From a virus (Duplodnaviria > Heunggongvirae > Uroviricota > Caudoviricetes): a stretch of DNA of 64,000 nucleotides. Positions within the stretch are counted from its first letter, which is position 1, and the number at the start of each line of letters is the position of its first letter. Positions 2,604-57,265 of this stretch are shown one piece after another. The notes under the pieces were generated by a model. It was not told the origin of the DNA. It ran no database searches and worked only from the letters and a program-made list of their open reading frames with translations. The translations under genes were made by a program, and so were the position numbers. The stretch lies in IMG/VR virus record IMGVR_UViG_3300042391_000580; one strand, given 5' to 3'.

Positions 2604-2634
2604 TTGTATGATTAAAAAATTAATCTTACCTTTG
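2604..2634 (+). promoter_or_regulatory. sigma-A-like promoter TTG-N20-TACCTTTG
   Basis: matches Bacteroidetes -33 TTG / -7 TAnnTTTG with the same 23-nt register as the other copies; 21 nt before ATG 2655. Confidence 0.5.
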
Positions 2635-2654
2635 CAAAAAATATTAGTAAAACT

Positions 2655-3017
2655 ATGAAACTATTTAAAAAAGAATTAGTACTAACTCAACAAGAAGAGG
2701 GTATAGTAAATGTAATTAAGAGCATGACTTTTAGGAAAGATTGCCTTATTGAAATAAACCCCGAAACTATGGACTATTTACTATCCATAGAGGACTTGCA
2801 GTATTTTATATTGATAGATTCAGAGGGTGTACAAATATCAAACCATAGCTTTTTTATAACACGAAGATTAAGGTCTAATGTTGTAGATAGTATAAAGAGT
2901 ATAGTAAAAGCTGAAACCTCTGCTAGAAGACAATTAAAAGCAGATAGTATTTTTAACAACGAACTAGAATTATTAACAAAAATAAATAAAGCAATAAATA
3001 ATGGCAGAAGTAAATAG
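2655..3017 (+). CDS. hypothetical protein
   Basis: ORF track; promoter motif TACCTTTG 21 nt upstream. Confidence 0.5.
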   Translation: MKLFKKELVLTQQEEGIVNVIKSMTFRKDCLIEINPETMDYLLSIEDLQYFILIDSEGVQISNHSFFITRRLRSNVVDSIKSIVKAETSARRQLKADSIFNNELELLTKINKAINNGRSK

Positions 3018-3495
3018 TGTGCTTAAAGTATCTGACTTAGTAAAGTTCAGCGAGAAAGATTACCTAGAGACAAAGAAAACTCTAGCTGTAATGGACGAAA
3101 TGGTTCGAGAGTATGTAAAAGGCACAGAGAGCCTAGATGCACTAGAAGACCTAAAGAGAAGATTTAATGGTTACTTAGTTTACCTAGCCGGTTATTATAG
3201 TAAGGTTAGATGCTTTCGTGAGAACTTCGAGTTCTTGGAGGCACAGAGAAAGCGTATAAAGAGTGAGGCGATAGAGGACTTAATAAGACATAGTGAAGAG
3301 AAAATCTCTCAATCTGCTGCTGAAAAAGTAGTATATTCACACCCTTATTACATTGAGCGTATTACCTTGTTAGAGCAGTTGAAACGTTTCTTCTACCTAG
3401 TGGACTTATCTTATCAAAACTATCAAGATGTACAAAGAAGTATCTATCAATCAATCTCTGTCTTAGCAAAAGAAAGGCACTCAACAATATCGTAG
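3001..3495 (+). CDS. hypothetical protein (164 aa)
   Basis: ORF track. Confidence 0.5.
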   Translation: MAEVNSVLKVSDLVKFSEKDYLETKKTLAVMDEMVREYVKGTESLDALEDLKRRFNGYLVYLAGYYSKVRCFRENFEFLEAQRKRIKSEAIEDLIRHSEEKISQSAAEKVVYSHPYYIERITLLEQLKRFFYLVDLSYQNYQDVQRSIYQSISVLAKERHSTIS

Positions 3496-3496
3496 T

Positions 3497-3925
3497 ATGG
3501 GAAGTGTAATAGATTTTATAGAATGTCCACGATGTAAAAGCGAAGATTGTTTCGATGATTACTACTACAAAACCGGAGAAGAGTATATAAGCTGTCCGGA
3601 TTGTGGCTATAATAGGTCTTCTTTTATCAAAAGAGATGATGAGGGTAATATGTTTAAAATAGATGAAGATAAAGACTTTGCTATTGATAATGTAGTAAGA
3701 GAAGAAACTTTGTTAGAAGAGCCTTATTGTGCCTTTATGATAAGGTACGAGGATGGTGTAGGTTCGGGGGGAGCGATCCCAACAAAAGAGGAGTATGATA
3801 TTTTTGTATCAGATATTGTGTCAATTACAAATCAGCCAGACCACAAAATGGAAGAGGTAACAATCAGTAGGTTTGTTGATGGGGAGATTAAGAAAGAAAC
3901 AATTTGGGGACAGACAAAAAAATAA
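3497..3925 (+). CDS. zinc-ribbon protein (CPRC...CPDC)
   Basis: N-terminal CxxC-X18-CxxC pair in translation. Confidence 0.5.
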   Translation: MGSVIDFIECPRCKSEDCFDDYYYKTGEEYISCPDCGYNRSSFIKRDDEGNMFKIDEDKDFAIDNVVREETLLEEPYCAFMIRYEDGVGSGGAIPTKEEYDIFVSDIVSITNQPDHKMEEVTISRFVDGEIKKETIWGQTKK

Positions 3926-3928
3926 GCT

Positions 3929-4291
3929 ATGACTTTAGAAAGACAATATAATAATTTCTTACACGAAAACCCAAACTCAAAGTTTTCGTTTAATGAATGG
4001 AAAGAGTGGCATGGTAATCAAATCAAGCAACAATTAGTTAGTATGATGAGAGCAGATGAAGAGTTAGGTCTATATGAGGAAGTACATGAAGATAACACTG
4101 AGAAGTGGAGAAATAACCCATTACTTATTGATGAAATGGGGCAATATAATTTTCCAAGACGTAGAATGTATAGTGAAGAAGAGTTTAAAGAGTTAGTATA
4201 TCACATGGTTGGTGCATTAGCTAACGCTAATAATATGACATTTAACGGAGCTATACTTGATGAATTTTTTAACAAATTTAAAAAGAAATAA
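3929..4291 (+). CDS. hypothetical protein
   Basis: ORF track. Confidence 0.5.
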   Translation: MTLERQYNNFLHENPNSKFSFNEWKEWHGNQIKQQLVSMMRADEELGLYEEVHEDNTEKWRNNPLLIDEMGQYNFPRRRMYSEEEFKELVYHMVGALANANNMTFNGAILDEFFNKFKKK

Positions 4292-4296
4292 GATTA

Positions 4297-4434
4297 TGAA
4301 AGTAGTTTATATGGAACAGACACTAAAGATGATTGCTAAATTAGAAGGTGTTGCAGAGGCAAAAAAGTTAGAGGCAGAAGGAGAGATAAAGTATGTAGGA
4401 GATACTCCTTATTTATTAATTATAAAAGAATAGT
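4297..4434 (+). CDS. small hypothetical protein (45 aa, MKVVYMEQTLKMIAKLEG...)
   Basis: own translation; fills otherwise empty gap between packed genes; below track cutoff. Confidence 0.3.
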
Positions 4435-4437
4435 AGT

Positions 4438-4704
4438 ATGATACTAGTAGATGGAAGACATGAGTACGATTACTCTTTAGAAGATGATAACGTACATATA
4501 TTAAGATATTCTGATAACGGCTCTTGGACATACCCTAAAGAGGTAGCTATGCAAGTTACAGACGATGGTAATGGACTAATAATAAAGCTCAGTGAAAAAG
4601 GAAGGATTGATTACTCAGAGGCAGAGATGTTACTGATACTTTTAAAATTAATTAATACAGAAAAAACTACTTACGAGGTAGTAACACAAAAAGAAAAACT
4701 ATGA
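4438..4704 (+). CDS. hypothetical protein
   Basis: ORF track; ATGA overlap with next ORF. Confidence 0.45.
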   Translation: MILVDGRHEYDYSLEDDNVHILRYSDNGSWTYPKEVAMQVTDDGNGLIIKLSEKGRIDYSEAEMLLILLKLINTEKTTYEVVTQKEKL

Positions 4705-5084
4705 AAAAGATTTTAATAGCATTATTATTAGTACTTGCAGTATCAACCGGATACTCACAGACACAATTTAGAGAAATTTATTCTCAAACAGCCTTGGTGG
4801 ACAAAGATAATAAATTAACAAGAAAGGTTGGAGAAAATATCTTTATATTTAATTATGGAAGTGAGCCAGTAATCAAACTTTACATGTATGATGGAAGTGT
4901 CAGAATGTTCGATCAAATAACAGACAGACAGTATGGTAAGACAGTGGGGGGGATGACATTCCACTACGCTAGATATGAAGAGAGGTCACAACATTTTACT
5001 GTAACCGTACAACTATTTGATGATAAACAATATGGAGTTAGGCTAGTATTTACAGATGGTCAAACAATTCAGTTTATACATTAG
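4701..5084 (+). CDS. secreted protein with N-terminal signal peptide
   Basis: MKKILIALLLVLAVSTGYSQ signal-peptide-like N-terminus. Confidence 0.5.
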   Translation: MKKILIALLLVLAVSTGYSQTQFREIYSQTALVDKDNKLTRKVGENIFIFNYGSEPVIKLYMYDGSVRMFDQITDRQYGKTVGGMTFHYARYEERSQHFTVTVQLFDDKQYGVRLVFTDGQTIQFIH

Positions 5085-5104
5085 TAAAAAATATTAAAAA
5101 AATA

Positions 5105-5135
5105 TTGCAAGATTAAAAAATAAGTTATATCTTTG
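5105..5135 (+). promoter_or_regulatory. promoter TTGCAAGATTAAAA...TATCTTTGCA
   Basis: TTG 5105-5107, TATCTTTG 5128-5135. Confidence 0.55.
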
Positions 5136-5160
5136 CAGAGAATTTAAAAACAAATAAAAT

Positions 5161-5340
5161 ATGACAATAGAAAAAAAGATTTTAGAAGAAAAAAAAGAGT
5201 TTGCTATGGATTTTGGAGATTGGTTACAATCTATGTGTAAGGATGTAGGAAATGGTAATTGGGAATACAGGATGGATAAAGAATTATATTCTACTTATGA
5301 AATAATAGATATTTTTTTAGAGGGAAGAGAGAACATTTAA
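5161..5340 (+). CDS. small hypothetical protein (59 aa, MTIEKKILEEKKEFAMDFGDWLQSMCK...)
   Basis: own translation; follows promoter 5105-5135; shares identical 21-nt leader with next gene. Confidence 0.35.
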   Translation: MTIEKKILEEKKEFAMDFGDWLQSMCKDVGNGNWEYRMDKELYSTYEIIDIFLEGRENI

Positions 5341-5353
5341 AAACAAATAAAAT

Positions 5354-6445
5354 ATGAAATTATTAAGAGACATCCCTACTAAACATTTTGTAGGCATTGA
5401 CATTGAAACAGTCCGTATTGTAGAAAAGTATGAAGACTTATCTCCGGAGTGGCAATCAGCATGGGAGTACAAGAACAAGCAATCGGGAGAGGTACCTTTC
5501 TTCGAGGAGTTAGCAGACTCTTGGGAAAAGACATCATCTTTGTATGCGGAGTTCAGTAAAGTTTGTGCTGTGAGTATTGTATTTATGATCGGGGAAGACA
5601 AAGCTAAGTACAAAGAGTTCTATGGAGAAGACGAGGCAGTATTACTTACAGACCTTAGAAATTTCTTACAAAGAATGTCAGATGGTGCCGATGGTAAAAA
5701 CTACAGATTGTTAGGGCATGCCGCTAAGTATTTTGATTACCCTTTCTTATGCAAAAGATTTGTAATCAACAGCATTCAAATACCGGTATTGTTAGATACA
5801 GCACACCAAAAACCTTGGGAGAGCAGAAACATGTGTACTAACCAAGACATTTGGAAGATGGGTGGCTCTGGTGCCGGTAGTTCATTACAAGCGTTGTGTA
5901 CTGCACTTAACATACCTATCAGTAAGGTAGACTTAGTAGGGGATGAAGTAGGTAGTGCTTATTACAGAGGAGAGGTAGAAAGAATTGCTCAGTATTGTAC
6001 ATTAGATACGATAGCTACTTTCAATGTAGTTCGTAGAATCAAGGGAGAAAAAGTATTTCAGTTTGATGAAGTTACTCCGGTAAAAGAAAGCACTCAGAAA
6101 GAAGAGTTAAAGTTAGTACCTAAGAAATCGACTATTGCTAAAGCAGTAAACAAAGTAGAAGTACCTAAGAAAGTTGAGGCTGTTGATACAAGAGAGCCGG
6201 AAGATGTACTTTTTGAGAAACTGCCAATATTACATAAGTTAGTAAACGCAACAGAAATTCTACCGGAGACTAGACAAGAACTTACAGAGTTGTTAAAGAA
6301 GAAAAAGATGACTAAGAAAGACAGAGTTATTGTAGAAGACATCTTAGTTAATTTGTATATCAATACAGAGATGTTCAAGTCAGATACATTAATACTACAA
6401 GAAGTAAAAAAAGCAGAAATTCAAGAACTATTAAATAAGATATAA
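5354..6445 (+). CDS. DnaQ-like DEDDy 3'-5' exonuclease with K/E-rich C-terminal extension
   Basis: Exo I VGIDIETV, Exo II GHAAKYFDYPFL, Exo III YCTLDT motifs in translation. Confidence 0.65.
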   Translation: MKLLRDIPTKHFVGIDIETVRIVEKYEDLSPEWQSAWEYKNKQSGEVPFFEELADSWEKTSSLYAEFSKVCAVSIVFMIGEDKAKYKEFYGEDEAVLLTDLRNFLQRMSDGADGKNYRLLGHAAKYFDYPFLCKRFVINSIQIPVLLDTAHQKPWESRNMCTNQDIWKMGGSGAGSSLQALCTALNIPISKVDLVGDEVGSAYYRGEVERIAQYCTLDTIATFNVVRRIKGEKVFQFDEVTPVKESTQKEELKLVPKKSTIAKAVNKVEVPKKVEAVDTREPEDVLFEKLPILHKLVNATEILPETRQELTELLKKKKMTKKDRVIVEDILVNLYINTEMFKSDTLILQEVKKAEIQELLNKI

Positions 6446-7125
6446 TGTTAGACTTACCAAAAGTATATGAGAATGAAGGGGGTAAATACCCCCAACATGT
6501 TGGGAAACCAAAACTTAGTTATTCTGCTTACAACTCCTTTAATGAGGAAGCATACAAAGGGGAGTTTTTTGCTAACTACTTCTTAGGAATCCGAGGAGAG
6601 GGTAACATCTTTACAGACTTTGGTGGAAAGTGTGGGGTATTGTTTGAAACAGACTCTGAGACCTCCGATCTTTCTGATTCTGATGTAGAGGTTATCAAAG
6701 GTGTAGAGAGACCTGCAAATGCTTTGTATGAGGTTGAGATAGTAGTAGACAGAGGTACATATGTTATCCAAGGGTTTATAGATAGAGAATACCTAGATGT
6801 TGAGGGTAATCTTGTTATTGATGATTTAAAGACCGGTGCTATAAAAAGCAAGAAGGCTTTCTACGGAGGCGATGAGTACCAACAGACAACTTTGTATGCT
6901 TATCAGAGAGAATTAGAGGGGGAGCATATTGCTTATTCGGGAGTTATTTTGTTAGATAGAAAAGGTAATGGTCAAGAAAAGCATCCACTAAGATTAACCG
7001 GAGAAATTGAGCGTATACCTACACCTTATTCTAAGAAAAGAGCAGAGGCTTTCCTGAAGTCTTTTGACAAGACTGCAAAAAAGATTGAGGAGTACCATAA
7101 AGTTTATAAAAAATATTTTGCGTAA
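6445..7125 (+). CDS. PD-(D/E)XK family nuclease (RecB/Cas4-like fold)
   Basis: GFIDREYLDVEGNLVIDDLKTG matches the GxIDRxD...IxDYKTG core of RecB-type nucleases; ATGA overlap with exonuclease gene. Confidence 0.55.
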   Translation: MLDLPKVYENEGGKYPQHVGKPKLSYSAYNSFNEEAYKGEFFANYFLGIRGEGNIFTDFGGKCGVLFETDSETSDLSDSDVEVIKGVERPANALYEVEIVVDRGTYVIQGFIDREYLDVEGNLVIDDLKTGAIKSKKAFYGGDEYQQTTLYAYQRELEGEHIAYSGVILLDRKGNGQEKHPLRLTGEIERIPTPYSKKRAEAFLKSFDKTAKKIEEYHKVYKKYFA

Positions 7126-7128
7126 TAC

Positions 7129-7159
7129 TTGCGAGATTAAAATATAGGTTGTATCTTTG
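7129..7159 (+). promoter_or_regulatory. promoter TTGCGAGATTAAAA...TATCTTTGCA
   Basis: TTG 7129-7131, TATCTTTG 7152-7159. Confidence 0.55.
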
Positions 7160-7362
7160 CAGAAGAAATAATAACACATAGAAAGACAAACAAGTAATTA
7201 GATGTAGAGGTATGAGTACACAGAGACTCTCTAGTTACAACACTACAAGAAGTGTTATGTTTGTTGAGTATGATAAGGATAGAAATAATCCCAATAGTAG
7301 ATGTCTCTTTGAAGAATCCGTTTGGTGTAAATACTAAACTATCTTTATCCCAATCTTGATGG

Positions 7363-7545
7363 ATGTGTTATTTTAATAAATTAAAAAGTATGGTAAATAA
7401 AGTAGCAGGAGTAATTCTCCTAGTTTTCGGATGGTTATTCGGAACATTTTGGATTTTTAATCACATCAATGCTTGGGCTGGAATTGCAGTTGGTGTGTTA
7501 GGTTTAATAATTTCAGCAAATCAAATTAGTAAAAAATTAAAGTAA
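7363..7545 (+). CDS. small two-TM membrane protein (holin-like topology)
   Basis: two hydrophobic helices and charged C-terminus KKLK. Confidence 0.4.
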   Translation: MCYFNKLKSMVNKVAGVILLVFGWLFGTFWIFNHINAWAGIAVGVLGLIISANQISKKLK

Positions 7546-7550
7546 GAAAA

Positions 7551-8363
7551 ATGAAAAAAGTTTTAGCAGTATTTTTAGTGTTAGTAGTAGCAGTGGGTTT
7601 TACCTCTTGCGAAAGAGTTGCTCCAAACTATTATGGAGTGTTGATGGAAAATTATGGTAAGGATGGCAAGGATGACTATTCTAAACAACAAGGTAGAGTA
7701 TCTACAATTTCTCCGGGGACAGAGTTATTTCAAGTACCGGCATGGGAACAACGTGGTAAGTTTACTAATGATGAGGGACAAGACAGAACTTTACAAGTAA
7801 AAGCAGCAGATAACACAGCCTTTACATCTAAGCCGTTATATTCATATAAAGTAATTCAAACTAAAGTTGTAGATGTAGTATTCCAAAATTCTAGGTTAGG
7901 TTCTGGAGATGATTTTATGAATGCCTTACAAGACAATGTATTGGAGCCAAGAATCTATGATATTATAAAAGAAGCATCAAGAAGTTATACAACAGAGCAA
8001 TTAATGGCTAATGGTGGTTCATTAAGATTTGAGCAATACGTTCAAGATATAGTTACAAAAGAGTTTGAGAAAGCCGGTTTAGAATTAATTAGTTTCAGTT
8101 TAAACTTAGACTTCTCTAATAAAGTAAAAGCTAAGATTGACTCAAGAAACGAGGTAAATACAAATATCTCTGTTTTGGATCAGCAAATTGCAGAACAAAG
8201 AAAACGTAATGAATTGGAAGTTTTAAGAACTGAGCAAAATAAAATTAGAAGTGCCGGTATTACTCCACAAATATTACAAGAACAAGCAATTCGTAAGTGG
8301 AATGGTCATTTACCAACTACTTATGCAGGAGGTGGCTTACCATTTGTTAAGGCAGTAAACTAA
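7551..8363 (+). CDS. lipoprotein (270 aa) with C-terminal coiled-coil; possible SPFH-like
   Basis: lipobox VGFTSC after signal peptide MKKVLAVFLVLVVA. Confidence 0.5.
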   Translation: MKKVLAVFLVLVVAVGFTSCERVAPNYYGVLMENYGKDGKDDYSKQQGRVSTISPGTELFQVPAWEQRGKFTNDEGQDRTLQVKAADNTAFTSKPLYSYKVIQTKVVDVVFQNSRLGSGDDFMNALQDNVLEPRIYDIIKEASRSYTTEQLMANGGSLRFEQYVQDIVTKEFEKAGLELISFSLNLDFSNKVKAKIDSRNEVNTNISVLDQQIAEQRKRNELEVLRTEQNKIRSAGITPQILQEQAIRKWNGHLPTTYAGGGLPFVKAVN

Positions 8364-8901
8364 TAAAAAATAACCTGTACCCCCGAAAAACTCGTATTTA
8401 AAGATAAGCAGGTTAGCTCTTATATAAAGGGGTATTAGAATAAGAGCAAAGGTGGTGTACCCAACCCGAAATGGGTGCTATTGGTCTCTGAAGAAAAGGG
8501 AACGCTTGTGAGTGGCAGTACATAACTCTCAAAAATAGCTAAGCTGTGTAAAGCACCAGATCTGATAAACTGTGTGAAGCTATGGGTTAAACATTGAATA
8601 CCTTTGTAAGAGAACCGTTATCTGCACCTTTTAGGTAGTAGAGAGCATACGTCATACTTCCATAAAGATACTATCAGTAATGGTAGATGTGTTGTTCCCT
8701 TGAGAAAGGAATGGTTAATAAAGAGATTAGACTTAATTGTTTGCTATCTACAACACAAATGAGTTCTCAGCAAGTAGTTATGAGATTCGAGCCTGCAAAG
8801 TTCTTTGAAGTAACTATGTGACCCTACTCTTGGTCCGGCTACGTAAGCTGATGCCGCTTACATGAAAGAGGGTGCTAAATTTTAATTAAAATAAATATAA
8901 A

Positions 8902-9075
8902 ATGAAAAAGATTTTCTTTTTAATGGCTATTATTTTAGCCTTTAGCGTAACAAGTTGTAAACAAGCTAGTGAAGTAAATTCAGATGCAACAACAGATTCA
9001 ACAGCAGTTCAAGTTGATTCAAATGGTGTAGACACAACAAGTGTTGATACTACTGCTTTAGATACAGTTAAATAG
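8902..9075 (+). CDS. small secreted lipoprotein (57 aa, T/D/V-rich) embedded in RNA island
   Basis: MKKIFFLMAIILAFSVTSC lipobox; below track cutoff; own translation. Confidence 0.35.
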   Translation: MKKIFFLMAIILAFSVTSCKQASEVNSDATTDSTAVQVDSNGVDTTSVDTTALDTVK

Positions 9076-9248
9076 TATTTAAGGATCGAGGCTTCTTCCT
9101 TTGAATGAAGCTACGCTACCGAAATGATAAGTGCCCTCACACGAGGGATTTTTAAAGAATGTTTTGGGTATGTTGGAAGGGGAAACAAGCACTGTGATCA
9201 GTGTGGCATAGAGTTGAGAGTCCGGATGTCAAAACTCTTTTAAGTCCT

Positions 9249-9341
9249 TGAGGGTTCGAGTCCCTCTACCTAATCGAAATAGTTTGTTGATGTATTATTG
9301 AATTTTGTTTGGACGGGAGTTCGATTCTCCCCACCTCCACA
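9249..9341 (+). ncRNA. ssrA: candidate tmRNA acceptor piece (T-arm GGGAG-TTCGATT-CTCCC + 3' acceptor strand CACCTCC-A) of a permuted two-piece ssrA
   Basis: close to E. coli tmRNA 3' end (UUUCGGACGCGGGUUCAACUCCCGCCAGCUCCACCA vs UUUGGACGGGAGUUCGAUUCUCCCCACCUCCA); pairs with GGGGGUG at 9437 with G3-U70. Confidence 0.4.
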
Positions 9342-9436
9342 AGAGTTTCCTTGAACTATAAACAAGGTGGTGGAGTCGCTGAGAAATCAGAGACCTAACA
9401 GTTTGAGGGAGCGTTCTGTTTAAAAACGTAACAATA

Positions 9437-9576
9437 GGGGGTGACTGGTTTTGACAGCAATCTAGTAGGTAGTAAGTAGAACTAATTTCAAATTTAAACG
9501 ACAACGTTTACCAACTTGGTGGGGTGCAAAGAATTGCAGCTTAACCACGCCTAGGGAGAGCGACATCTCCCTAACT
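9437..9576 (+). ncRNA. ssrA: candidate tmRNA coding piece: 5' tRNA-like strand GGGGGUGACUGGUUUUGAC, tag-like ORF ending GCA GCU UAA (..RIAA-stop) at 9542-9544, post-stop hairpin TAGGGAGA/TCTCCCTA
   Basis: 5' end resembles tmRNA consensus GGGGNUGAUUCUGGAUUCGAC; tag region shares AAACGAC...GCAGCUUAA with E. coli ANDENYALAA coding sequence; lies downstream of its own T-arm, implying permutation. Confidence 0.4.
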
Positions 9577-9650
9577 GGTCCTATAGCTCATTCGGTTAGA
9601 GCAACTGACTCATAATCAGTAGGTGCTTGGTTCGATTCCAAGTGGGACCA
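9577..9650 (+). tRNA. tRNA-Met (anticodon CAU; elongator type, could alternatively be tRNA-Ile2/lysidine)
   Basis: hand-folded cloverleaf: acceptor GGTCCTA/TGGGACC (one G-U), D-stem GCTC/GAGC, anticodon stem ACTGA/TCAGT with loop CTCATAA, T-stem CTTGG/CCAAG loop TTCGATT, discriminator A; CCA not encoded. Confidence 0.85.
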
Positions 9651-9913
9651 CTTAGCAAGGCATAAACGATAAGGAATACTCGTCACAGGTTTATGTTGAG
9701 TTGCAGACGGGCCGAAATGCTTACGGTTAACAAGGCTTAACTCATAAAGTCTAGAGAGCAAAATCTAACGAGTGACTGATGGAAAGACATCAACATGGGA
9801 AAGTAGCAGATAAGGTCGCCCCTGAACTGTGAGTGGGACTAATGTGACGGTCAATCGTAAAGGCTCAAGGTACGTAACAAGTAGTAGTTGGTTGGAGTAA
9901 GTGACTTAGCATC

Positions 9914-9937
9914 GGGGGTTCGATTCCCCCCTTTTTT
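9914..9937 (+). terminator. terminator closing the RNA island; hairpin mimics a tRNA T-arm
   Basis: GGGGG-TTCGATT-CCCCC followed by C TTTTTT. Confidence 0.5.
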
Positions 9938-9958
9938 ACAAACTAAAAATTATATAAA

Positions 9959-10156
9959 ATGTCAGTATTTAAAGTGTCTTTTATGGGAACTCGAATAGGA
10001 GAACATAATGGTAAGCCTAGTAAAATAAGATTTAAAGTGCAGGATGAAGAAGGTGAAGATTATTACAGTTCAGGGGGAGAACAAAAAATAGAATTTGATA
10101 TAGACTTAGAGTACAAGGATGTAACCAATTTAAAAATAACAGAAGTTTATGAATAA
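9959..10156 (+). CDS. hypothetical protein
   Basis: ORF track. Confidence 0.45.
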   Translation: MSVFKVSFMGTRIGEHNGKPSKIRFKVQDEEGEDYYSSGGEQKIEFDIDLEYKDVTNLKITEVYE

Positions 10157-10179
10157 AGTAAAAACAAAATTAATATAAG

Positions 10180-10485
10180 ATGAACGAACTATTTAAAAAA
10201 ACAAAAACAGACAGATTTCAGTTAGATGAAAACTACTTCCTAGAGTCAGATGGCTACCATGGGCTAACACTATTGTTTGAACAAGCTAGGATGAAGAAGA
10301 AAAAAGATGGTAGTGGGGAAGAAGAATACCTTTATGTAGACAAATGGTACTACCCTAAAGTATCAATGGTTCTCCATAAGTACTTAGAACTTGTAACAAA
10401 AGATACAAAATCTATAGAAGAATTAAGAGAAGTTGTGTTAAGGGTAGAAACAAAAATTGACTCCATTCGAGAGTCATGGAAATAG
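10180..10485 (+). CDS. hypothetical protein
   Basis: ORF track. Confidence 0.45.
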   Translation: MNELFKKTKTDRFQLDENYFLESDGYHGLTLLFEQARMKKKKDGSGEEEYLYVDKWYYPKVSMVLHKYLELVTKDTKSIEELREVVLRVETKIDSIRESWK

Positions 10486-10495
10486 TTTAACTAAT

Positions 10496-10526
10496 TTGCA
10501 AAAATAATTCTATTTTTGTATCTTTG
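10496..10526 (+). promoter_or_regulatory. promoter TTGCAAAAATAA...TATCTTTG upstream of nrdBA
   Basis: TTG 10496-10498, TATCTTTG 10519-10526. Confidence 0.5.
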
Positions 10527-10540
10527 TACCTTAATATCGG

Positions 10541-10572
10541 AGTACCTCTTTTAATTAGGAGGTACTTTTTTT
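10541..10572 (+). terminator. intrinsic terminator-like hairpin between promoter 10496-10526 and nrdB start
   Basis: AGTACCTC (10541-48) / GAGGTACT (10559-66) 8-bp stem, 10-nt loop, then T7. Confidence 0.5.
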
Positions 10573-10600
10573 ACCTTAATTTTTAAAATAATAAAAACCA

Positions 10601-11578
10601 ATGAGCATCTTCACAGAAAGAAAAAACTACAAGCCGTTTGAGTACAGCGGTATTACAGACCCCTTAATTAATGCAATGTGGGCCGGACACTGGACTCATA
10701 ATGAGTTCAATTTTTTGAATGACATTCAAGATTACAAAACAAAATTAACAGTAGAAGAACAAGGAGTAGTCAAAAGAGCTATACTACTAACTTCACAAGT
10801 AGAAGTTGCTGTAAAATCTTATTGGTCTAACATTGGGAAGTTACTCCCTAAGCCTGAGATAGCTGACATGGGGGCAGTATTCGGAGGGGTAGAAGTTGTC
10901 CACTCAAAAGCATATGCAGAGATACTATCAAAACTTGGATTGGAAGATCAATTTGAAGATTTGTTCTCAGAGCCGGTTGTTGTTGGGAGAGTGAATTATT
11001 TAACAAAGTATATCAACAAGATATACAAAAATGACCATAAGAATATTTGCTATTCTTTAGTTTTATTTACATTATTCACAGAATATACTGCTTTATTTTC
11101 ACAATTCTATACTATTCTAGGATTTAATAGGTTCAGAGGAGTGCTTAAAGATGTAGCAAATGTAGTGCAATATACTTCGAAAGAGGAAAACTTACATGCA
11201 GAAGGTGGTATTGCCTTACTTAACCAAATTAGAGCAGAGCACCCAGAATTATTTGATGCAGAGTTTGTTGAGAAGATTAGACAAGAAGTACTAGAGGCTT
11301 ACAAAGCTGAGGCAGATTTGATTGACTGGATTCTAGAGGGTTATGAAAATGAGTTTTTATCCCCTAAGATTTTAAAAGGTTATGTACAAATTAGATTAAA
11401 CGATGCCCTAGAGAAAATTGGTATGGGAACTTCTTTTGAGATTGATCCTCAGATTAGGGAAGAAACTCTTTGGATGGAAGAAGAAGTTTATGCAAGTGCT
11501 TTGACAGACTTCTTTCACAAAAAACCTATTGATTATAGTAAAAAAATGAAAACGTATAACGAAGAAGATTTATTTTAA
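10601..11578 (+). CDS. nrdB: ribonucleotide reductase class I small (beta) subunit
   Basis: di-iron ligand ExxH motifs VEVVHSKAYAE and SKEENLHAEG; size and adjacency to alpha subunit. Confidence 0.85.
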   Translation: MSIFTERKNYKPFEYSGITDPLINAMWAGHWTHNEFNFLNDIQDYKTKLTVEEQGVVKRAILLTSQVEVAVKSYWSNIGKLLPKPEIADMGAVFGGVEVVHSKAYAEILSKLGLEDQFEDLFSEPVVVGRVNYLTKYINKIYKNDHKNICYSLVLFTLFTEYTALFSQFYTILGFNRFRGVLKDVANVVQYTSKEENLHAEGGIALLNQIRAEHPELFDAEFVEKIRQEVLEAYKAEADLIDWILEGYENEFLSPKILKGYVQIRLNDALEKIGMGTSFEIDPQIREETLWMEEEVYASALTDFFHKKPIDYSKKMKTYNEEDLF

Positions 11579-11579
11579 G

Positions 11580-13226
11580 ATGGAAGATTTTAATTGGTTA
11601 AACAAAGACTCAAGAGCATTTCTTGAAAAAGACTACTTATTAGAGGGGGTTACCCCTGAAGAACGTATCAGACAAATAGCAGATACAGCAGAAAGTGTAC
11701 TAGGTATTGAAGGATTTTCAGATAAATTCTACGGCTACATGGCTAAAGGATTTTATTCATTAGCTACACCGGTTTGGATGAATTTTGGCCTTGATAGAGG
11801 GTTACCTATATCTTGTTATGGAATTGACATTCAAGATGACACAATGGATATTCTGAGAGCAACAGCTGAGATTGGTGCCTTAACTAAAATGGGAGGTGGT
11901 ACTGCCGGTTACTTCGGTAAGTTAAGAGGTAGAGGTGCACCTATTCGTAACAATGGAGTTTCAAACGGAGCTGTTAGTTTCTTACTACCTTTCCAAACAA
12001 CAACAGATGTTATTACACAAGGTCAAGCAAGAAGAGGTTATTTTGCTGCTTACTTACCTGTTGATCACCCAGATATTGAGGAGTTTTTACAATGTAGGAA
12101 TGAAGGTAATGTTATTCAAAATATTGCTCTAGGAGTTTGTATCTCAGATGAATGGATGGAGTCAGCAGAGGCCGGGGATAAAGATAAAAGAAAAATCTTA
12201 GCCAAGATACACCAAAAAAGAGCAGAGTCTGGGTTTCCTTACATCTTCTTTACCGGTAATGTAAACAAGAATAAGCCTAAAGTGTACAAAGATAAAGAGA
12301 TGGATATTAACCACTCTCAGATGTGTACAGAAATCTTAGAATATACAGATGAGCATAAATCATTTGTTTGTTGTTTATCTTCCTTGAACCTTTTACATTG
12401 GGATGAGATGGTTCAAACAGATGCAGTTGAAACTTTGGCTTACTTCTTAGATGCAGTTTATTCTGAGTTTATACAAAAGGCAGATGGTATTCCATTTATG
12501 GAGAAAGCTTTGTTGTTCGCAAAAGAACACAGAAGTATCGGTATTGGAGTTCTTGGATGGCACAGTTTCTTACAATCTAAACTTATTCCTTTTGAGGGCT
12601 TAGAATCTAAGATGTTGAATGCCGAGATTTTTAGAACTATCAACGATAAAAGTTTAATTGCAAGTATGCAGTTAGCAACTATGTTTGGGGAGCCGGAAAT
12701 GCTGAAAGGTTACGGACAAAGATTTACAACTAGACTAGCAATTGCCCCTACAACAAGTTCGTCTTTTATCCTTGGACAAGTTAGTCCAAGTATTGAGCCA
12801 TTACAGTCTAATTACTTTATTAAAGATCTAGCTAAAGGTAAGTTTGTTTATAGAAACCCTTACTTAAAGAAGTTATTGAAAGATAAAGAGCAGGATACTC
12901 CGGAAGTATGGAACAGCATCTTATTAAAAGGTGGTTCAGTACAACATTTAGATATTCTTGACGAAAAAGAAAAATTAGTATTCAAAACATTTGGTGAGAT
13001 AAGCCAATTAGAAATAGTACAACAAGCTGCCCAAAGACAGAGATTTATTGACCAAGGGCAGTCTTTAAACCTAATGATACACCCTGATACTTCCTTGAAA
13101 GAAGTCAATGCGTTGTTCTTTGAGTCTTGGAAGTTAGGTATAAAAACACTTTATTATCAAAGAAGTGTGAATATGGCCCAAGAGGTTAGCCGTAATCTTA
13201 TGGATTGCTCTAGTTGTGAGGGGTAA
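11580..13226 (+). CDS. nrdA: ribonucleotide reductase class I large (alpha) subunit, short form without ATP cone
   Basis: active-site NHSQMCTEI (cf SNLCTEI) and CCLSSLNL, C-terminal CSSCEG redox pair. Confidence 0.85.
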   Translation: MEDFNWLNKDSRAFLEKDYLLEGVTPEERIRQIADTAESVLGIEGFSDKFYGYMAKGFYSLATPVWMNFGLDRGLPISCYGIDIQDDTMDILRATAEIGALTKMGGGTAGYFGKLRGRGAPIRNNGVSNGAVSFLLPFQTTTDVITQGQARRGYFAAYLPVDHPDIEEFLQCRNEGNVIQNIALGVCISDEWMESAEAGDKDKRKILAKIHQKRAESGFPYIFFTGNVNKNKPKVYKDKEMDINHSQMCTEILEYTDEHKSFVCCLSSLNLLHWDEMVQTDAVETLAYFLDAVYSEFIQKADGIPFMEKALLFAKEHRSIGIGVLGWHSFLQSKLIPFEGLESKMLNAEIFRTINDKSLIASMQLATMFGEPEMLKGYGQRFTTRLAIAPTTSSSFILGQVSPSIEPLQSNYFIKDLAKGKFVYRNPYLKKLLKDKEQDTPEVWNSILLKGGSVQHLDILDEKEKLVFKTFGEISQLEIVQQAAQRQRFIDQGQSLNLMIHPDTSLKEVNALFFESWKLGIKTLYYQRSVNMAQEVSRNLMDCSSCEG

Positions 13227-13252
13227 TTAATTTTATTATTTTTTGTTTTTAG

Positions 13253-13276
13253 CCCTCCAGAAATGGGGGGTTTTTT
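13253..13276 (+). terminator. intrinsic terminator after nrdA
   Basis: CCCTCC-AGAAAT-GGGGGG then TTTTTT. Confidence 0.6.
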
Positions 13277-13304
13277 ATTTTATTAAAAAAAGTTTAACTT
13301 TTTC

Positions 13305-13335
13305 TTGCACATGTTAAATATTCTCCATATCTTTG
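13305..13335 (+). promoter_or_regulatory. promoter TTGCACATG...TATCTTTGCA
   Basis: TTG 13305-13307, TATCTTTG 13328-13335. Confidence 0.55.
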
Positions 13336-13362
13336 CAAAGTGAAATTAAAACATTAAAAATT

Positions 13363-13569
13363 ATGAAAAAATTATTATTACTTTTAATAGGGGTTGCTAC
13401 ATTATCTTGCTCCTCAGTAGAACAAAGAATAAAAGAGTATTCTTACACAAACGAGTGGTACTATATGGGTACTGAAAGATACCAAGTTTACAAAACAGAA
13501 AATGGTAGAAGGTATATTGTTGTGTTGAACAACAAACAAACTAATTTTAAACGTAAATATATTAAATAA
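13363..13569 (+). CDS. small lipoprotein (68 aa)
   Basis: ATG at 13363 (track start 13333 is an alternative TTG start codon inside the promoter); MKKLLLLLIGVATLSCSS lipobox. Confidence 0.5.
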   Translation: MKKLLLLLIGVATLSCSSVEQRIKEYSYTNEWYYMGTERYQVYKTENGRRYIVVLNNKQTNFKRKYIK

Positions 13570-13575
13570 TAAGAT

Positions 13576-14112
13576 ATGTATAAATTTAACAAAGACAGCT
13601 TAATTTACGAGAGAGTAAACATTTGGAAGTATGTTGGTATGATTGCCTTTTCTTTATTGATAGTATTCACATTAAGCTCTTTTGTTTTGAAAGAGGTTGT
13701 AATAGTCAACGCAGAAAAAGAAGTTATTTTAAAAACCAATGAGGACTTCTCTAAAGATAAGTTATTATTAGAAGTAGAAAAATACTCCTTTAAGTACCCC
13801 GATATTGTGATGGCCCAGGCTATTCTAGAAAGTGGGCATTTTAAATCTCCGGTATTCAAACAAAACCACAATATGTTTGGTATGAGACAGGCATTACGTA
13901 GAATAAGCACTGCACAGGGCTCAAATCTTAATCATGCGTATTATACTAGTTGGAAGGATTGCGTAGCTGACAGAGCCTTATATGAAGCCCAGTACCTATC
14001 TAAGCTGACAAGAGAACAATACTTTTCTTACTTAGACCAAGTTTATGCTGAGGGTGGAGGTTATAGCAAACTATTAAAGCAGGTAATACAAAAAATGAGC
14101 CATGATAAATAA
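13576..14112 (+). CDS. membrane-anchored peptidoglycan hydrolase, glucosaminidase (FlgJ/mannosyl-glycoprotein endo-beta-N-acetylglucosaminidase) domain
   Basis: N-terminal TM helix then AQAILESGHFKSPVFKQNHNMFGM, classic glucosaminidase-domain motif. Confidence 0.65.
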   Translation: MYKFNKDSLIYERVNIWKYVGMIAFSLLIVFTLSSFVLKEVVIVNAEKEVILKTNEDFSKDKLLLEVEKYSFKYPDIVMAQAILESGHFKSPVFKQNHNMFGMRQALRRISTAQGSNLNHAYYTSWKDCVADRALYEAQYLSKLTREQYFSYLDQVYAEGGGYSKLLKQVIQKMSHDK

Positions 14113-14704: not shown

Positions 14705-14709
14705 AAATT

Positions 14710-15186: not shown

Positions 15187-15187
15187 T

Positions 15188-15472: not shown

Positions 15473-15512
15473 TAAAAGCAGAAGAGCCAACTGTAAACCG
15501 GCAAAATTAATT

Positions 15513-16236: not shown

Positions 16237-16350
16237 ATCATGTAAAGTCAGATTTGGCTACATTAAAACAGCCAAAGATGGGTAAGAGTCATTTTGATAG
16301 TCTTAGGATATGGGAGTTGGAACAAGAGAAAAAAGTTTTAGAAGAAAAGC

Positions 16351-16381
16351 TTGCAGAATTAAAAAACAATTCATAACTTTG
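16351..16381 (+). promoter_or_regulatory. promoter TTGCAGAATTAAAA...TAACTTTGCA
   Basis: TTG 16351-16353, TAACTTTG 16374-16381. Confidence 0.55.
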
Positions 16382-16412
16382 CAAAAAATTTATTAACAAT
16401 AAAAAAATTAAT

Positions 16413-16903: not shown

Positions 16904-16904
16904 T

Positions 16905-17198: not shown

Positions 17199-17203
17199 AA
17201 GTA

Positions 17204-18814: not shown

Positions 18815-18832
18815 AATTAAATAAGATTTAAT

Positions 18833-18863
18833 TAGGTTTATTAAGAAATACTTTGTACCTTTG
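18833..18863 (+). promoter_or_regulatory. promoter-like -7 element TACCTTTGCA (weak -33)
   Basis: TACCTTTG 18856-18863; no TTG at -23. Confidence 0.35.
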
Positions 18864-20781: not shown

Positions 20782-20812
20782 TTGCAGGAATAAAATCTTG
20801 TTCGTATCTTTG
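20782..20812 (+). promoter_or_regulatory. promoter GCTTGCAGGAATAAAA...TATCTTTGCA
   Basis: TTG 20782-20784, TATCTTTG 20805-20812. Confidence 0.55.
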
Positions 20813-24019: not shown

Positions 24020-24050
24020 TTGCGGCATTAAAATTAATGTTATATCTTTG
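24020..24050 (+). promoter_or_regulatory. promoter GCTTGCGGCATTAAAA...TATCTTTGCA
   Basis: TTG 24020-24022, TATCTTTG 24043-24050. Confidence 0.55.
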
Positions 24051-27125: not shown

Positions 27126-27156
27126 TTGGAAAAACCGAATATTAGTAGTACTTTTG
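27126..27156 (+). promoter_or_regulatory. promoter TTG-N20-TACTTTTGCA
   Basis: TTG 27126-27128, TACTTTTG 27149-27156. Confidence 0.5.
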
Positions 27157-28432: not shown

Positions 28433-28475
28433 TAAAAAAATACCCCCTTGGATTTTGTCCTTGGGGGTTTTTTAA
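28433..28475. terminator. bidirectional terminator at the convergent strand switch
   Basis: AAAAAAATA CCCCCTTGGA TTTTG TCCTTGGGGG TTTTTT; A-run one side, T-run other. Confidence 0.6.
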
Positions 28476-34223: not shown

Positions 34224-34254
34224 CAAAATTAGTATTTTTATTTGTCATATCCAA
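34224..34254 (-). promoter_or_regulatory. minus-strand promoter TTG-N20-TAATTTTGCA for the 1907-aa gene
   Basis: plus-strand CAAAATTA 34224-34231 and CAA 34252-34254; same 23-nt register. Confidence 0.55.
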
Positions 34255-41727: not shown

Positions 41728-41758
41728 CAAAATTAGTACTTTTTTTTGTAAAAACCAA
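41728..41758 (-). promoter_or_regulatory. minus-strand promoter TTG-N20-TAATTTTGCA for the 2469-aa gene
   Basis: plus-strand CAAAATTA 41728-41735 and CAA 41756-41758. Confidence 0.55.
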
Positions 41759-50002: not shown

Positions 50003-50033
50003 CAAAATTACAAATTTTATTTGTATCCTGCAA
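50003..50033 (-). promoter_or_regulatory. minus-strand promoter TTG-N20-TAATTTTGCA for the 874-aa/1859-aa operon
   Basis: plus-strand CAAAATTA 50003-50010 and CAA 50031-50033. Confidence 0.55.
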
Positions 50034-54985: not shown

Positions 54986-55001
54986 TATATTTTTATTAAT
55001 T

Positions 55002-57200
55002 TTATTTTCTACTAAATAACTTTCTTCCTAAAAACTCTGCATCTTTTCTATTTTTTGAGTCTATAACTATAGTTGTATCTCCTTTTTTAAACCTATCTGT
55101 TAAATAATTAATATCCGGTTTTCTACAGTTAACACAGCCATAGCTAGCATATCTATTTTTTGCCTCTTGTGAGTATAGTGGATTTCTGTTCTTAAAATCA
55201 TATGTTACATGCAATGCTACGTCTTTTGATTTTGGTGCTGGTTGTCCAAAAGCTGGTATAGGGTTTATCCTAAAACCTGGTTCTCCATATATATCAGCTT
55301 TAGGGTCCATTACATATGCACCTACAGGTGTTCCCCTAGATTCTGGGTGTGTTTCTAAATAGTGAACGCCCCTATTATTAACGTTTTGATCCGGGTTTAA
55401 GGCTGTTAATACTGGAAATGTTCTTGTCACTACTCCATCTTCTACTACATAACTAGTATTACTTCTCTTATCTGTAATAACTCCATTTTGTAGGTTTTGA
55501 GTGTTCCCAATATTACCTGTTATAAAATCATTAAATATATCTAACCCACTTCTATTTGATAAAGGACTCCTGTTTTCTTTATTTAATTTGTTAACTGTTT
55601 TGGTATCATTTTTAGCCTTTCTTATAGGTGCAGCAACAGATTTTTTAGTTACAGGTGGTTTTCTATCCCATAGTGGGTTAATAGGCACTTGAGGAAAAAA
55701 CTCATTAGTATTTTCTGTATCCATTTTTTTATTACTTTTTATTTTAAAATTTTTGTCTTTTAGTTGGCTTAGTAACTCTATATTAGAATCTCTTGAGCCG
55801 TCTGTATAACCTAATCTCTTAGCTTCAGACCAAGGGAGTCCTGTTTTTTCTACCCAGTTATCTCTTGCTGAGTTATGGTCAAAATTACCCCCTTCTTGGA
55901 ATTGTTCTTGAGGAAACATTATGTTTTGTTTTTTTTCCACTGCTGGATGTCTTGTAGTTCTTTCCCATTCATCTGCTTCTTGCCATGTTTTAAAAGGGCC
56001 TCCTAAGTGCTCTCCTGTTTTTTTAAATTCTTCAATAGGATCTGCTAATGGTTTACCATATTTAAAACTAGGAATCAAATAAGCTGGTTCTCCATTTTCT
56101 CCACCTATAGACATAGCTAATTCAGAACTAGGTTCAGCATAAGGTATTCTATACCCTTCTGGTAACTTTTCGCTAGTTGGTTGTAAGAAAGTTAGACTTC
56201 TGCCGCCAGTTTGGTATTTTGACACCTTGGTTACACTTTTGCCTGTACTTTGTCCACCACATTTATGGCAGTTATACATATCTTTTTCCGTAGATTCAGA
56301 TTTGTCCCATGACCAACCACAGTTAGTACACTCTACTTCTCCTTCTATCTCTCCCCCATCTTTGTAAGCTGGCTCTTGTGGTATTTGGTTTTGGAGTTGC
56401 TCGTATTGTATAGCTTCGTAATTAGGTAATTCTATCTGTGGTACTTGGTAAAACGATGAGTCTAATCCGCTATCTTGTTGTTGTTGTTGTTGAATTTGCT
56501 GTTGTTGCTCTTCTTGTTTTTGTCTTAAGGCTGTAGCTTGGTTTTGTTTAGTTTGTAATTCTGCTAAAAAATCTTTTTCTTTTTGTTTTTGTAATAGCTC
56601 TGCCTTTGCTTGCTGTGCTTCTATTTCTTCTTTAGTAGTACCTATCTCTGGAGCTGTTATGTTTGCTCCTGGATCTGTAAATAAATTCATTGACATATCT
56701 GATTCATCCTCGTAATCATAGTTTTCAGATGCAGATGGTTTTAGACTCATTTTTTTAGATAGCCAATTTTTTACAAAACCTACGCTTTTACCTTGTACAA
56801 AAGGATTATCATGTATTGCTCTAGTTGACATTACATCTGAAATTGGTCTGTTATCTGCTGTTTTATACAATTTTTTATAACCAACAGCCCCTAAAAAATG
56901 AGCCCCATACAAATCTGCATGGGTTGGCTCTATACCTAAGTTTTTTTTAAGGTAGCTTATATTACTATTAGTAAATCTAACAGCTGCTTCTTGCTGTAGT
57001 TTTGTATTAAATCTGTCTTTCCAGTCATAGCCTAAGCCTGTCCATGTATCCTTTGTAAACTGGTAAAGTCCAGATGCACTTCCAAATGGGTTTTCTGCAT
57101 ACTTCTTCCCTGCACTTTCTGAACCCCTTACTTTTGCAAAGTAGTTTGTCAAATCGTTTTCAAGTTTTTTTACTTTCCCTGTTTTATCTTCTATGTACAT
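55002..57200 (-). CDS. virion-associated cell-wall hydrolase candidate (732 aa): SLT-like N-terminus, poly-Q, zinc ribbon, C-terminal L,D-transpeptidase-like Cys motif
   Basis: ENPFGSASGLYQFTKDTW; QQQQIQQQQQQ; CTNCGWSW...CHKCGG; H...ASYGCVNC. Confidence 0.5.
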   Translation of the reverse strand: MYIEDKTGKVKKLENDLTNYFAKVRGSESAGKKYAENPFGSASGLYQFTKDTWTGLGYDWKDRFNTKLQQEAAVRFTNSNISYLKKNLGIEPTHADLYGAHFLGAVGYKKLYKTADNRPISDVMSTRAIHDNPFVQGKSVGFVKNWLSKKMSLKPSASENYDYEDESDMSMNLFTDPGANITAPEIGTTKEEIEAQQAKAELLQKQKEKDFLAELQTKQNQATALRQKQEEQQQQIQQQQQQDSGLDSSFYQVPQIELPNYEAIQYEQLQNQIPQEPAYKDGGEIEGEVECTNCGWSWDKSESTEKDMYNCHKCGGQSTGKSVTKVSKYQTGGRSLTFLQPTSEKLPEGYRIPYAEPSSELAMSIGGENGEPAYLIPSFKYGKPLADPIEEFKKTGEHLGGPFKTWQEADEWERTTRHPAVEKKQNIMFPQEQFQEGGNFDHNSARDNWVEKTGLPWSEAKRLGYTDGSRDSNIELLSQLKDKNFKIKSNKKMDTENTNEFFPQVPINPLWDRKPPVTKKSVAAPIRKAKNDTKTVNKLNKENRSPLSNRSGLDIFNDFITGNIGNTQNLQNGVITDKRSNTSYVVEDGVVTRTFPVLTALNPDQNVNNRGVHYLETHPESRGTPVGAYVMDPKADIYGEPGFRINPIPAFGQPAPKSKDVALHVTYDFKNRNPLYSQEAKNRYASYGCVNCRKPDINYLTDRFKKGDTTIVIDSKNRKDAEFLGRKLFSRK
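56475..56492 (-). repeat. (TTG)6 microsatellite, encodes poly-Gln on minus strand
   Basis: ttgttgttgttgttgttg read directly. Confidence 0.8.
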
Positions 57201-57235
57201 GTATTTATATAAATCTATTCTAGTTATATTAGTGG

Positions 57236-57265
57236 CAAAATTAAGAAAAATTATTTAATTTACAA
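57236..57265 (-). promoter_or_regulatory. minus-strand promoter-like TAATTTTGCC (22-nt register) for the 732-aa operon
   Basis: plus-strand CAAAATTA 57236-57243; TTG one position off the usual register. Confidence 0.4.

Follow-up and report, generated by a model that had tools for sequence, protein, structure and literature searches.

Promoters of the Bacteroidota and of their phages

The primary sigma factor of the Bacteroidota, sigma-A (also sigma-ABfr), reads a consensus made of TTTG at -33 and TAnnTTTG at -7 (Bayley 2000; Vingadassalom 2005; PMC9723704; PMC7366714). In Flavobacterium this was written TTG-N17-23-TAnnTTTG (Chen 2007), and in F. johnsoniae the -7 box was refined to TAHHTTTG, that is, with no G at its variable positions (Baez 2019, PMC6847099). 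The promoters of this organism also display AT-rich elements near -28 and -18, and transcription starts 4-5 nt past the G of the box (PMC6847099). In genome-wide host maps, for F. johnsoniae as well as for B. thetaiotaomicron, the -33 motif is weak or undetectable. The sigma factor of the Chlorobi, though related, reads a different -7 motif, which makes the TAnnTTTG box reasonably phylum-specific. Here we describe fourteen copies of a motif of this kind, lying between positions 2,604 and 57,265 of a 64,000-nucleotide stretch of viral DNA (Caudoviricetes; IMG/VR record IMGVR_UViG_3300042391_000580; 'the window' in what follows). They are very probably promoters for the primary RNA polymerase holoenzyme of the host, of the Bacteroidota sigma-A type.

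The sites belong to a known promoter type, which has direct experimental precedent in another phage, the Cellulophaga phage phi14:2. Its middle and late genes are rifampicin-sensitive and transcribed by the host RNA polymerase; promoters with an 'extended tripartite motif' were mapped by primer extension ahead of g070, g075, g108 and g110; similar motifs occur in 14 crAss-like genomes; and the E. coli holoenzyme uses promoters of this type in vitro. The early transcripts, made by the virion RNA polymerase, share no common upstream motif (Drobysheva et al., bioRxiv 10.1101/2020.03.07.982082). When the upstream regions of the four mapped genes are read again, all four display A-tract-TTG-N20-TAnnTTTG.

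One architecture on two arms

The window represents 64 kb of a phage genome of about 123 kb, and is made of two converging arms. In a map of the longest open reading frames (ORFs; cutoff 50 aa), all genes up to 28425 are on the plus strand and all those from 28480 on the minus strand. The plus arm carries many small ORFs together with genes of nucleotide metabolism and replication (NrdB, NrdA, a DnaB-like helicase, PolA, exonucleases, MazG and a deoxynucleoside monophosphate kinase), while the minus arm codes for the structural proteins of the virion, three of them from giant ORFs (1907, 2469 and 1859 aa).

The expression TTG-N19/20-TAnnTTTG, where N is any nucleotide, matches 19 times over both strands of the window, and 13 of these matches are intergenic and sense-oriented, with the next start codon 21-36 nt away or, in a few cases, 75-204 nt. 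When the spacing is varied from 10 to 30, N20 stands out with 14 matches (box intergenic in 11), each other spacing giving only 1-5, of which 0-1 intergenic. This is well beyond chance: TTG-N20-TAnnTTTG was expected 2.15 +/- 1.5 times in the whole window (maximum 8 in 200 dinucleotide shuffles), where 14 are observed, and 0.086 times in the 3,719 nt of intergenic DNA (maximum 2 in 500 shuffles), where there are 10. The original prediction had proposed a scan with a weight matrix. Built over 42 nt from the 12 N20 sites and run along 127,918 positions, such a matrix picks out exactly 14 positions scoring at least 15 bits (all reach at least 17), the next best score being 8.3 bits. Every one of the 14 is non-coding or at the edge of an ORF whose start is doubtful, and points in the sense direction of its own arm; no match of at least 15 bits falls within the approximately 60 kb of coding DNA of each strand. 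An equal frequency of the motif in coding DNA, which had been named as the outcome that would speak against promoters, is clearly not what is seen.

The fourteen putative promoters, with their matrix scores and the genes that follow them, are these.

2604..2634, plus strand: promoter, plus-arm class; TTG at 2604-2606, box TACCTTTG at 2627-2634, then CA; 36.9 bits; 20 nt from box to ATG of ORF 2655-3017.
5105..5135, plus strand: promoter, plus-arm class; A7-TATTGCAAGATTAAAA...TATCTTTGCA; 44.0 bits; predicted from the sequence to drive ORF 5161-5340 and the 3'-5' exonuclease gene 5354-6445.
7129..7159, plus strand: promoter, plus-arm class; CTTGCGAGATTAAAA...TATCTTTGCA; 43.4 bits; 203 nt ahead of ORF 7363, with a Band_7 gene and then a block of stable RNA genes downstream.
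10496..10526, plus strand: promoter; upstream half TTTAACTAATTTGC, resembling the minus-arm class, box TATCTTTGTA; 25.0 bits, leave-one-out 5.9; upstream of nrdB (10601-11578) and nrdA (11580-13226).
13305..13335, plus strand: promoter; CTTGCA...TATCTTTGCA; 30.2 bits; intrinsic terminator 13251-13272 ahead of it.
16351..16381, plus strand: promoter, plus-arm class; AAAAGCTTGCAGAATTAAAA...TAACTTTGCA; 45.0 bits.
18833..18863, plus strand: promoter variant; -33 region TTAGG, box TACCTTTG, then CA; 22.5 bits; missed by the expression above.
20782..20812, plus strand: promoter, plus-arm class; AAAAAGCTTGCAGGAATAAAA...TATCTTTGCA; 46.4 bits; after terminator 20727-20754, downstream of the DnaB-like helicase gene.
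24020..24050, plus strand: promoter, plus-arm class; directly after the PolA gene, overlapping the longest-ORF start at 24037; 43.0 bits.
27126..27156, plus strand: promoter; TTTGG...TACTTTTGCA; 36.3 bits; upstream of the SbcD-like exonuclease gene 27190-28425.
34224..34254, minus strand: promoter, minus-arm class; ATTTGG..ACAAATAAAA..TAATTTTGCAT; 29.7 bits; terminator 34291-34270 ahead; 20 nt from box to ATG of the 1907-aa virion protein gene.
41728..41758, minus strand: promoter, minus-arm class; TAACAAATTTGG..ACAAAAAAAA..TAATTTTGCAT; 32.6 bits; 20 nt from box to ATG of the 2469-aa gene.
50003..50033, minus strand: promoter, minus-arm class; TAATTAATTTGC..ACAAATAAAA..TAATTTTGCAT; 43.5 bits; 20 nt from box to ATG of an 874-aa structural gene.
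57236..57265, minus strand: promoter of the minus arm with N19 spacing; TTTAACTAATTTTG...TAATTTTGCC; 17.3 bits; upstream of a 732-aa transglycosylase-like structural gene.

That one architecture serves both arms, as the original prediction had it, is borne out, and so are its counts of ten plus-strand and four minus-strand copies; its membership has to be amended, 12658-12687 having likely been counted wrongly and 18833-18863 missed. The offset of 23 nt from TTG to TA, claimed to be identical throughout, is found in 12 sites, where TTG stands at N20; it is 22 nt (N19) at 57236-57265, and the fourteenth site has the TTAGG variant, which its relatives conserve. TAnnTTTG is present in all 14 boxes, and none has a G at the nn positions (P ~0.006 from base composition). 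The plus-arm box, described as mostly TATCTTTGCA, reads so in only five of ten sites, the others being TACC (two), TAAC, TACT or TATCTTTGTA; the minus-arm box, described as always TAATTTTGCA, does so in three sites, the fourth reading TAATTTTGCC. As for the A/T-rich extension of the -33 element, it takes the form (G)CTTGCrrnATTAAAA, or a close variant, in six plus-arm sites.

The plus-arm layout is approximately A5-(G)CTTGCrrnATTAAAA-N8/9-TAnCTTTGCA, and that of the minus arm TTTAAY-nAATTTG(G/C)-N5/6-ACAAAnAAAA-N5-TAATTTTGCAT, with exactly 20 nt from box to ATG in three sites. The consistent difference between the arms lies in the upstream half, A5-GCTTGC...ATTAAAA on the one and TTTAAY-nAATTTG...ACAAAnAAAA on the other, not in the -7 box. 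Two plus-arm sites, 10496 (nrdBA) and 27126 (exonuclease), carry an upstream half of the late-like, minus-arm kind. A division into two temporal classes is plausible; TATC against TAAT in the box, the marker first put forward for it, does not hold in related phages, where the orthologue of the site at 13305 reads TAATTTTGCA and boxes of the form TAATTTTGCA also follow -33 halves of the early type.

Six matches of the expression did not qualify as promoters, with matrix scores from -30.6 to 2.6 bits. The one at 12658-12687 (N19) lies inside nrdA, reads TATGTTTG, scores -30.6 bits and is a chance match; that at 1463-1493 (-11.7 bits) is the sole non-coding one of the six, those at 29646, 51178, 60845 and 62456 being coding.

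Comparison with mapped promoters

With the sigma-A promoters of the Bacteroidota the sites share the TAnnTTTG box devoid of G at nn, a TTG (often TTTG) 20 nt upstream, an AT-rich spacer near -28 and -18, short A-rich leaders without Shine-Dalgarno sequence, and a sense position ahead of genes. The published distance from TTG to box is 17-23 nt, typically 19-21, and the sharp N20 peak falls within it. They differ from host promoters in that the -33 TTG is nearly invariant and the spacing fixed at 20 nt, in that the box is extended to TTTGCA, and in the A-tract or TTTAAY blocks conserved upstream. The likeness extends to the middle promoters of phi14:2: both have A-tract-(C/T)TTG(C/A)-N-TAnnTTTG with N20, the one phage infecting Bacteroidota and that of the window probably so, and both are placed upstream of virion and expression genes and of tRNA genes; the tripartite organization is there too, the plus-arm form A5-(G)CTTGC...TAnCTTTG resembling g070, g075 and g108. 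There are also differences. The minus-arm sites have TTTAAY-nAA where phi14:2 has its A-tract, and constitute a second, arm-specific version of the motif. The phage of the window is not a crassvirus by the markers tested (no virion RNA polymerase with DFDxD in the window), its nearest cultured relatives being the Lightbulbvirus phages phi17:2 and phi4:1, at about 29% protein identity. Finally, the motif is also present here on the replication arm, whereas in phi14:2 the replication module is early, transcribed by the virion polymerase and without common motif.

With the sigma-70 promoters of E. coli (TTGACA-N17-TATAAT) there is a common distance of 20 nt between TTG and TA, but TAnnTTTG takes the place of the -10 hexamer. 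Over positions 1-20000 the consensus TTGACA-N16-18-TATAAT is not enriched (67 matches, against 80 +/- 9.2 in shuffles), and none of these matches coincides with a conserved intergenic motif.

Conservation in related phages

A megablast search with 20 kb of the window against the GenBank phage collection gave no match, hence no close or near-identical sequenced phage there. Relatives were found in IMG/VR, on contigs of about 123-124 kb, with 70-94% identity in the helicase. The closest cultured relatives, phi17:2 and phi4:1 of Cellulophaga baltica, are 29% identical across the entire 1907-aa protein and also have the two-arm layout; the next nearest are crAss-like phages of Bacteroides.

In 311 kb of related loci the matrix finds 35 distinct sites above 14 bits, 34 of them on the sense strand. 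Comparison with a divergent relative (a 124-kb contig, its structural proteins about 39% identical) shows high-scoring sites retained at all ten orthologous positions compared. At positions that played no part in the selection of the sites, identity amounts to 0.6-0.9 from -47 to -40 and from -28 to -22, and to 0.9 at -18, while the flanks of the same ten sites are at 0.43-0.48. In one relative, the protein encoded downstream of the site at 50003 has kept only 39% identity, the 42-nt site itself about 88%. On the 3' side of the helicase gene, relatives retain the terminator hairpin by compensatory changes and then the promoter, even where some 75 nt have been inserted between the two.

A search of IMG/VR with the extended -33 half alone (AAAAGCTTGCNNNATTAAAA) returned 37 matches, 18 of which have TAnnTTTG at exactly +23, where chance would yield far less than one; the remaining matches resemble coding DNA. 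When the late-type upstream half was used instead, most matches were due to chance or lay in coding DNA; nine of 62 had a -7 box, eight of the nine coming from this clade. Phage phi17:2 displays the same N20 peak at intergenic sites.

Which polymerase reads the sites?

Because TAnnTTTG devoid of G, TTG at N20 and the layout of phi14:2 come together, the assignment to the Bacteroidota sigma-A -33/-7 architecture, made in the original prediction, is supported; we infer that the host holoenzyme recognizes the sites. Region 4 of sigma would contact the -33 TTG and region 2 the box, 20 nt to its 3' side. By analogy with phi14:2, initiation would be rifampicin-sensitive and dependent on sigma-A, and would take place 4-5 nt past the G of the box, as published for F. 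johnsoniae (PMC6847099), not about 7 nt past the box as had been expected. Transcripts would then begin with short A-rich leaders without Shine-Dalgarno sequence, approximately 15-30 nt long at most sites. Two further blocks probably work as UP-like or DNA-shape elements and would make the sites strong: the upstream one, A-tract or TTTAAY, from -47 to -40, and the AT-rich one of the spacer, from -28 to -22. The conserved positions of the spacer coincide with the AT-rich elements reported near -28 and -18 in F. johnsoniae.

The phage would split both arms into transcription units by means of these promoters. Several come straight after intrinsic terminators (pairs 13251/13305, 20727/20782 and 34291/34254), as one would expect at the boundaries of transcription units. 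In the arm of replication and nucleotide metabolism the version used would be A5-GCTTGC...ATTAAAA...TAnCTTTGCA, and in the virion-protein arm TTTAAY-nAATTTG...ACAAAnAAAA...TAnTTTTGCAT, set 20 nt from the ATG. Taken together, the sites of the phage are more complete and more uniform than usual, which is what strong promoters that have to compete for the host polymerase should look like.

Several observations weigh against so simple an account. The start positions at the fourteen sites are predictions from the sequence. In 119 kb of Bacteroidota chromosomal DNA, fetched around nrdA homologues, there is no N20 peak (four matches at N20, one to 11 at other spacings); this sample is small, agrees with a weak -33 element in hosts, and does not decide for or against the model. 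In the phage, the -33 element and spacer are far more uniform than in host promoters, and the extra conservation could stem from a factor specific to the phage and not just from the strength of the promoters. A sigma factor, an RNA polymerase or a sigma-modifying factor could be encoded in the other ~59 kb of the genome or among the many ORFs without assigned family. The first 2.6 kb (positions 1-2600, plus strand) hold nine small ORFs and no promoter of sigma-A type, and may use another mode of transcription. Provided that the genomes are collinear, position 1 of the window maps some 160 bp away from the end of a related contig of 122,875 bp (IMGVR_UViG_3300047272_000350, 94% identical); the nine small ORFs may therefore be early genes of a genome terminus, with transcripts that come in from outside the window or arise in another way.

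It is the uniformity of the sites that chiefly keeps in play a refinement of host-holoenzyme recognition, which it would complete rather than exclude: the host core polymerase would be assisted by a phage activator, sigma appropriator or anti-sigma factor that reads the class-specific upstream half, bringing about an early-to-late switch. We consider it possible, yet doubtful. Blocks specific to a class, outside the -33 and -7 elements, are common to three of the four minus-arm sites and their orthologues, the spacer of the site at 50003 is nearly unchanged in the relative mentioned above, the distance from box to ATG is fixed in three late sites, and the late-like half at 10496 and 27126 even hints at a third grouping. 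Yet Pfam scans of 54 plus-arm ORFs and the five largest of the minus arm yielded no candidate regulator, the divergent relative has not kept the spacer of the site at 41728, the classes share their -7 variants in related phages, and AT-rich spacer elements are also typical of ordinary host promoters (PMC6847099); moreover, independent examples are few, since outside this clade a single contig has the late-type half together with a -7 box. A more specific version, rather improbable in our opinion, sees in the blocks of the late arm (TTTAAY around -43, ACAAAnAAAA from -24 to -15, the fixed 20-nt leader) a temporal code written by the phage, whereby a phage factor would take the Bacteroidota sigma-A holoenzyme off the replication arm and bring it to the virion arm. 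If true, it would be functionally comparable to sigma appropriation by MotA/AsiA of T4. To our knowledge, nothing of the kind has ever been described for the atypical sigma factor of the Bacteroidota.

It is highly improbable that the motif is read by an RNA polymerase or sigma factor of the phage itself, of crAss-like virion, N4 or T7 type, its likeness to the host consensus being then a coincidence or mimicry. The nearest relatives do include crAss-like phages that package an RNA polymerase, and the giant virion-protein ORFs have no assigned function. Nonetheless, no sigma or RNA polymerase family was recognized by Pfam among 54 plus-arm ORFs and the five largest of the minus arm (1907, 2469, 1859, 1264 and 950 aa), nor by scans against PHROGs. 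DFDxD is absent from every minus-arm ORF of the window, and the three giant ORFs are also devoid of D-x-D-x-D, of which two unrelated strings exist in smaller minus-arm ORFs; the giant ORFs have no sequence match in the PDB, which includes gp66 of phi14:2. Furthermore, neither an RNA polymerase nor a sigma factor is annotated in phi17:2, and in phi14:2 the motif belongs to the rifampicin-sensitive classes of the host polymerase, not to the early transcripts of the virion enzyme. As far as the window goes, which is some half of the genome, a polymerase encoded by the phage is unlikely.

That the repeats are no promoters at all, but sequences associated with start codons, recombination or boundary repeats, or sites for a replication or packaging protein, as the fixed 20 nt to the ATG in three late sites and the strong conservation beyond the two sigma-contact elements might suggest, is hardly credible in view of their bipartite structure with a sharp optimum at the published sigma-A geometry, of their location right behind terminators and before the gene that opens each block, of a distance to the ATG that on the plus arm may be as short as 19 nt or as long as 203 nt, and of the mapped transcript 5' ends of identical motifs in phi14:2.

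The host

The inference of the host phylum from the motif is also supported: three lines of evidence, indirect but independent of the motif, agree that the host probably belongs to the Bacteroidota. First, translation signals: within positions -25 to -1 of 63 start codons, a Shine-Dalgarno-like 4-mer core is found in four genes and a 5-mer in none, the leaders contain 60-75% A from -15 to -10, and A is present at -3 in 73%. Absence of Shine-Dalgarno, A-rich leaders and A at -3 make up the initiation pattern of Bacteroidota type. Second, the nearest cultured relatives all infect Bacteroidota, that is, Cellulophaga baltica and then, for the crAss-like phages, Bacteroides. Third, the nine best genomic homologues of NrdA, with 50-54% identity, are all from this phylum (Flavobacterium, Psychroflexus, Saprospiraceae, Chitinophagaceae, Aureispira and Porphyromonas), other phyla reaching at most 29%. 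The host is probably Flavobacteriia-like.

Surroundings of the sites and other features of the window

Some sites have unusual surroundings. A 12-bp hairpin followed by a T-run (10539-10568, plus strand) stands about 13 nt past the -7 box of the site at 10496; it could be the terminator of the upstream gene, an attenuator in the leader, or a protective 5' stem-loop of the nrdBA operon. An ATG is found 4 nt past the box of the site at 18833 (TACCTTTGCACAATG), where it opens a short hydrophobic ORF of less than 50 aa, from 18868 to about 18980, which may be the gene of a leaderless or near-leaderless small membrane protein. For the gene that follows the site at 24020 (longest ORF 24037-24300), the probable start is the in-frame ATG at 24070, while the 55-aa ORF 27033-27200, which surrounds the site at 27126, is probably not a gene.

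The window has 33% G+C and a coding density of 94% in the longest-ORF map, and its strand skews flip sign near 28 kb. The meeting point of the arms is marked by the following element, in the intergenic region 28426-28479.

28436..28472, no strand assigned: bidirectional terminator; hairpin CCCCCTTGG...CCTTGGGGG, placed between an A-run and a T-run.

It marks the convergence of the two arms, at the skew switch. In the minus arm, the 2469-aa ORF (34298-41707) is a mosaic without Pfam match: its C-terminal 500 aa match a virion protein of phi17:2 and phi4:1, and residues ~1470-1765 match segments labelled 'lysin', 'RelA/SpoT' and 'large polyvalent protein' in cyanophages and other phages.

Compared with the promoters, the gene for transfer-messenger RNA (tmRNA) is probably the more unusual feature; it lies, with a tRNA-Met gene, in the non-coding block 8364-9958 and is organized in circularly permuted order. 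The nearest upstream promoter of this block is the one at 7129, which has an orthologous site in L014, a divergent relative, about 190 nt before a tRNA gene. The elements of the block are the following.

8364-8901, plus strand: 538-nt stretch without ORF or Rfam match, its folding z-score (-1.2) unremarkable.
9282-9544, plus strand: permuted (two-piece) tmRNA, Rfam RF04321, 64 bits; related pieces at 9179-9342 and 9913-9930.
9577-9650, plus strand: tRNA-Met (CAT), 69.5 bits, just after the permuted tmRNA.

The segment 9291-9342, like the 3' acceptor and T-arm end of the tmRNA of a relative, is upstream of 9437-9457, which is like its 5' end (100% identical); the tag frame of the permuted gene ends with ...RIAA*. 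At the same locus L014 has a standard one-piece tmRNA (RF00023, 93.7 bits, L014:1141-1463), so that both forms of the gene exist within one phage clade. As for the 538-nt stretch, about 300 nt of it (especially 8532-8831) are 80-97% identical to L014:733-1048, located there between the tRNA and the tmRNA, and it may be a conserved non-coding RNA.

Consequences for the phage clade and its hosts

Our understanding of transcription in Bacteroidota is left unchanged by these observations. They provide a map of promoters and terminators from which the transcription units of an uncultured clade of ~123-kb phages can be read, and a pointer to a Bacteroidota host, drawn from the sequence only, with which the three independent lines of evidence are in accord. 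Signals from E. coli do not work in Flavobacteriia or other Bacteroidota. With their near-consensus sequence and short leaders, the phage cassettes, probably strong, are possible parts for genetic tools in these organisms. As to the phages themselves, the distribution of the sites suggests that the clade depends on the RNA polymerase of its host even for the replication arm, there where phi14:2 uses the polymerase of its virion.

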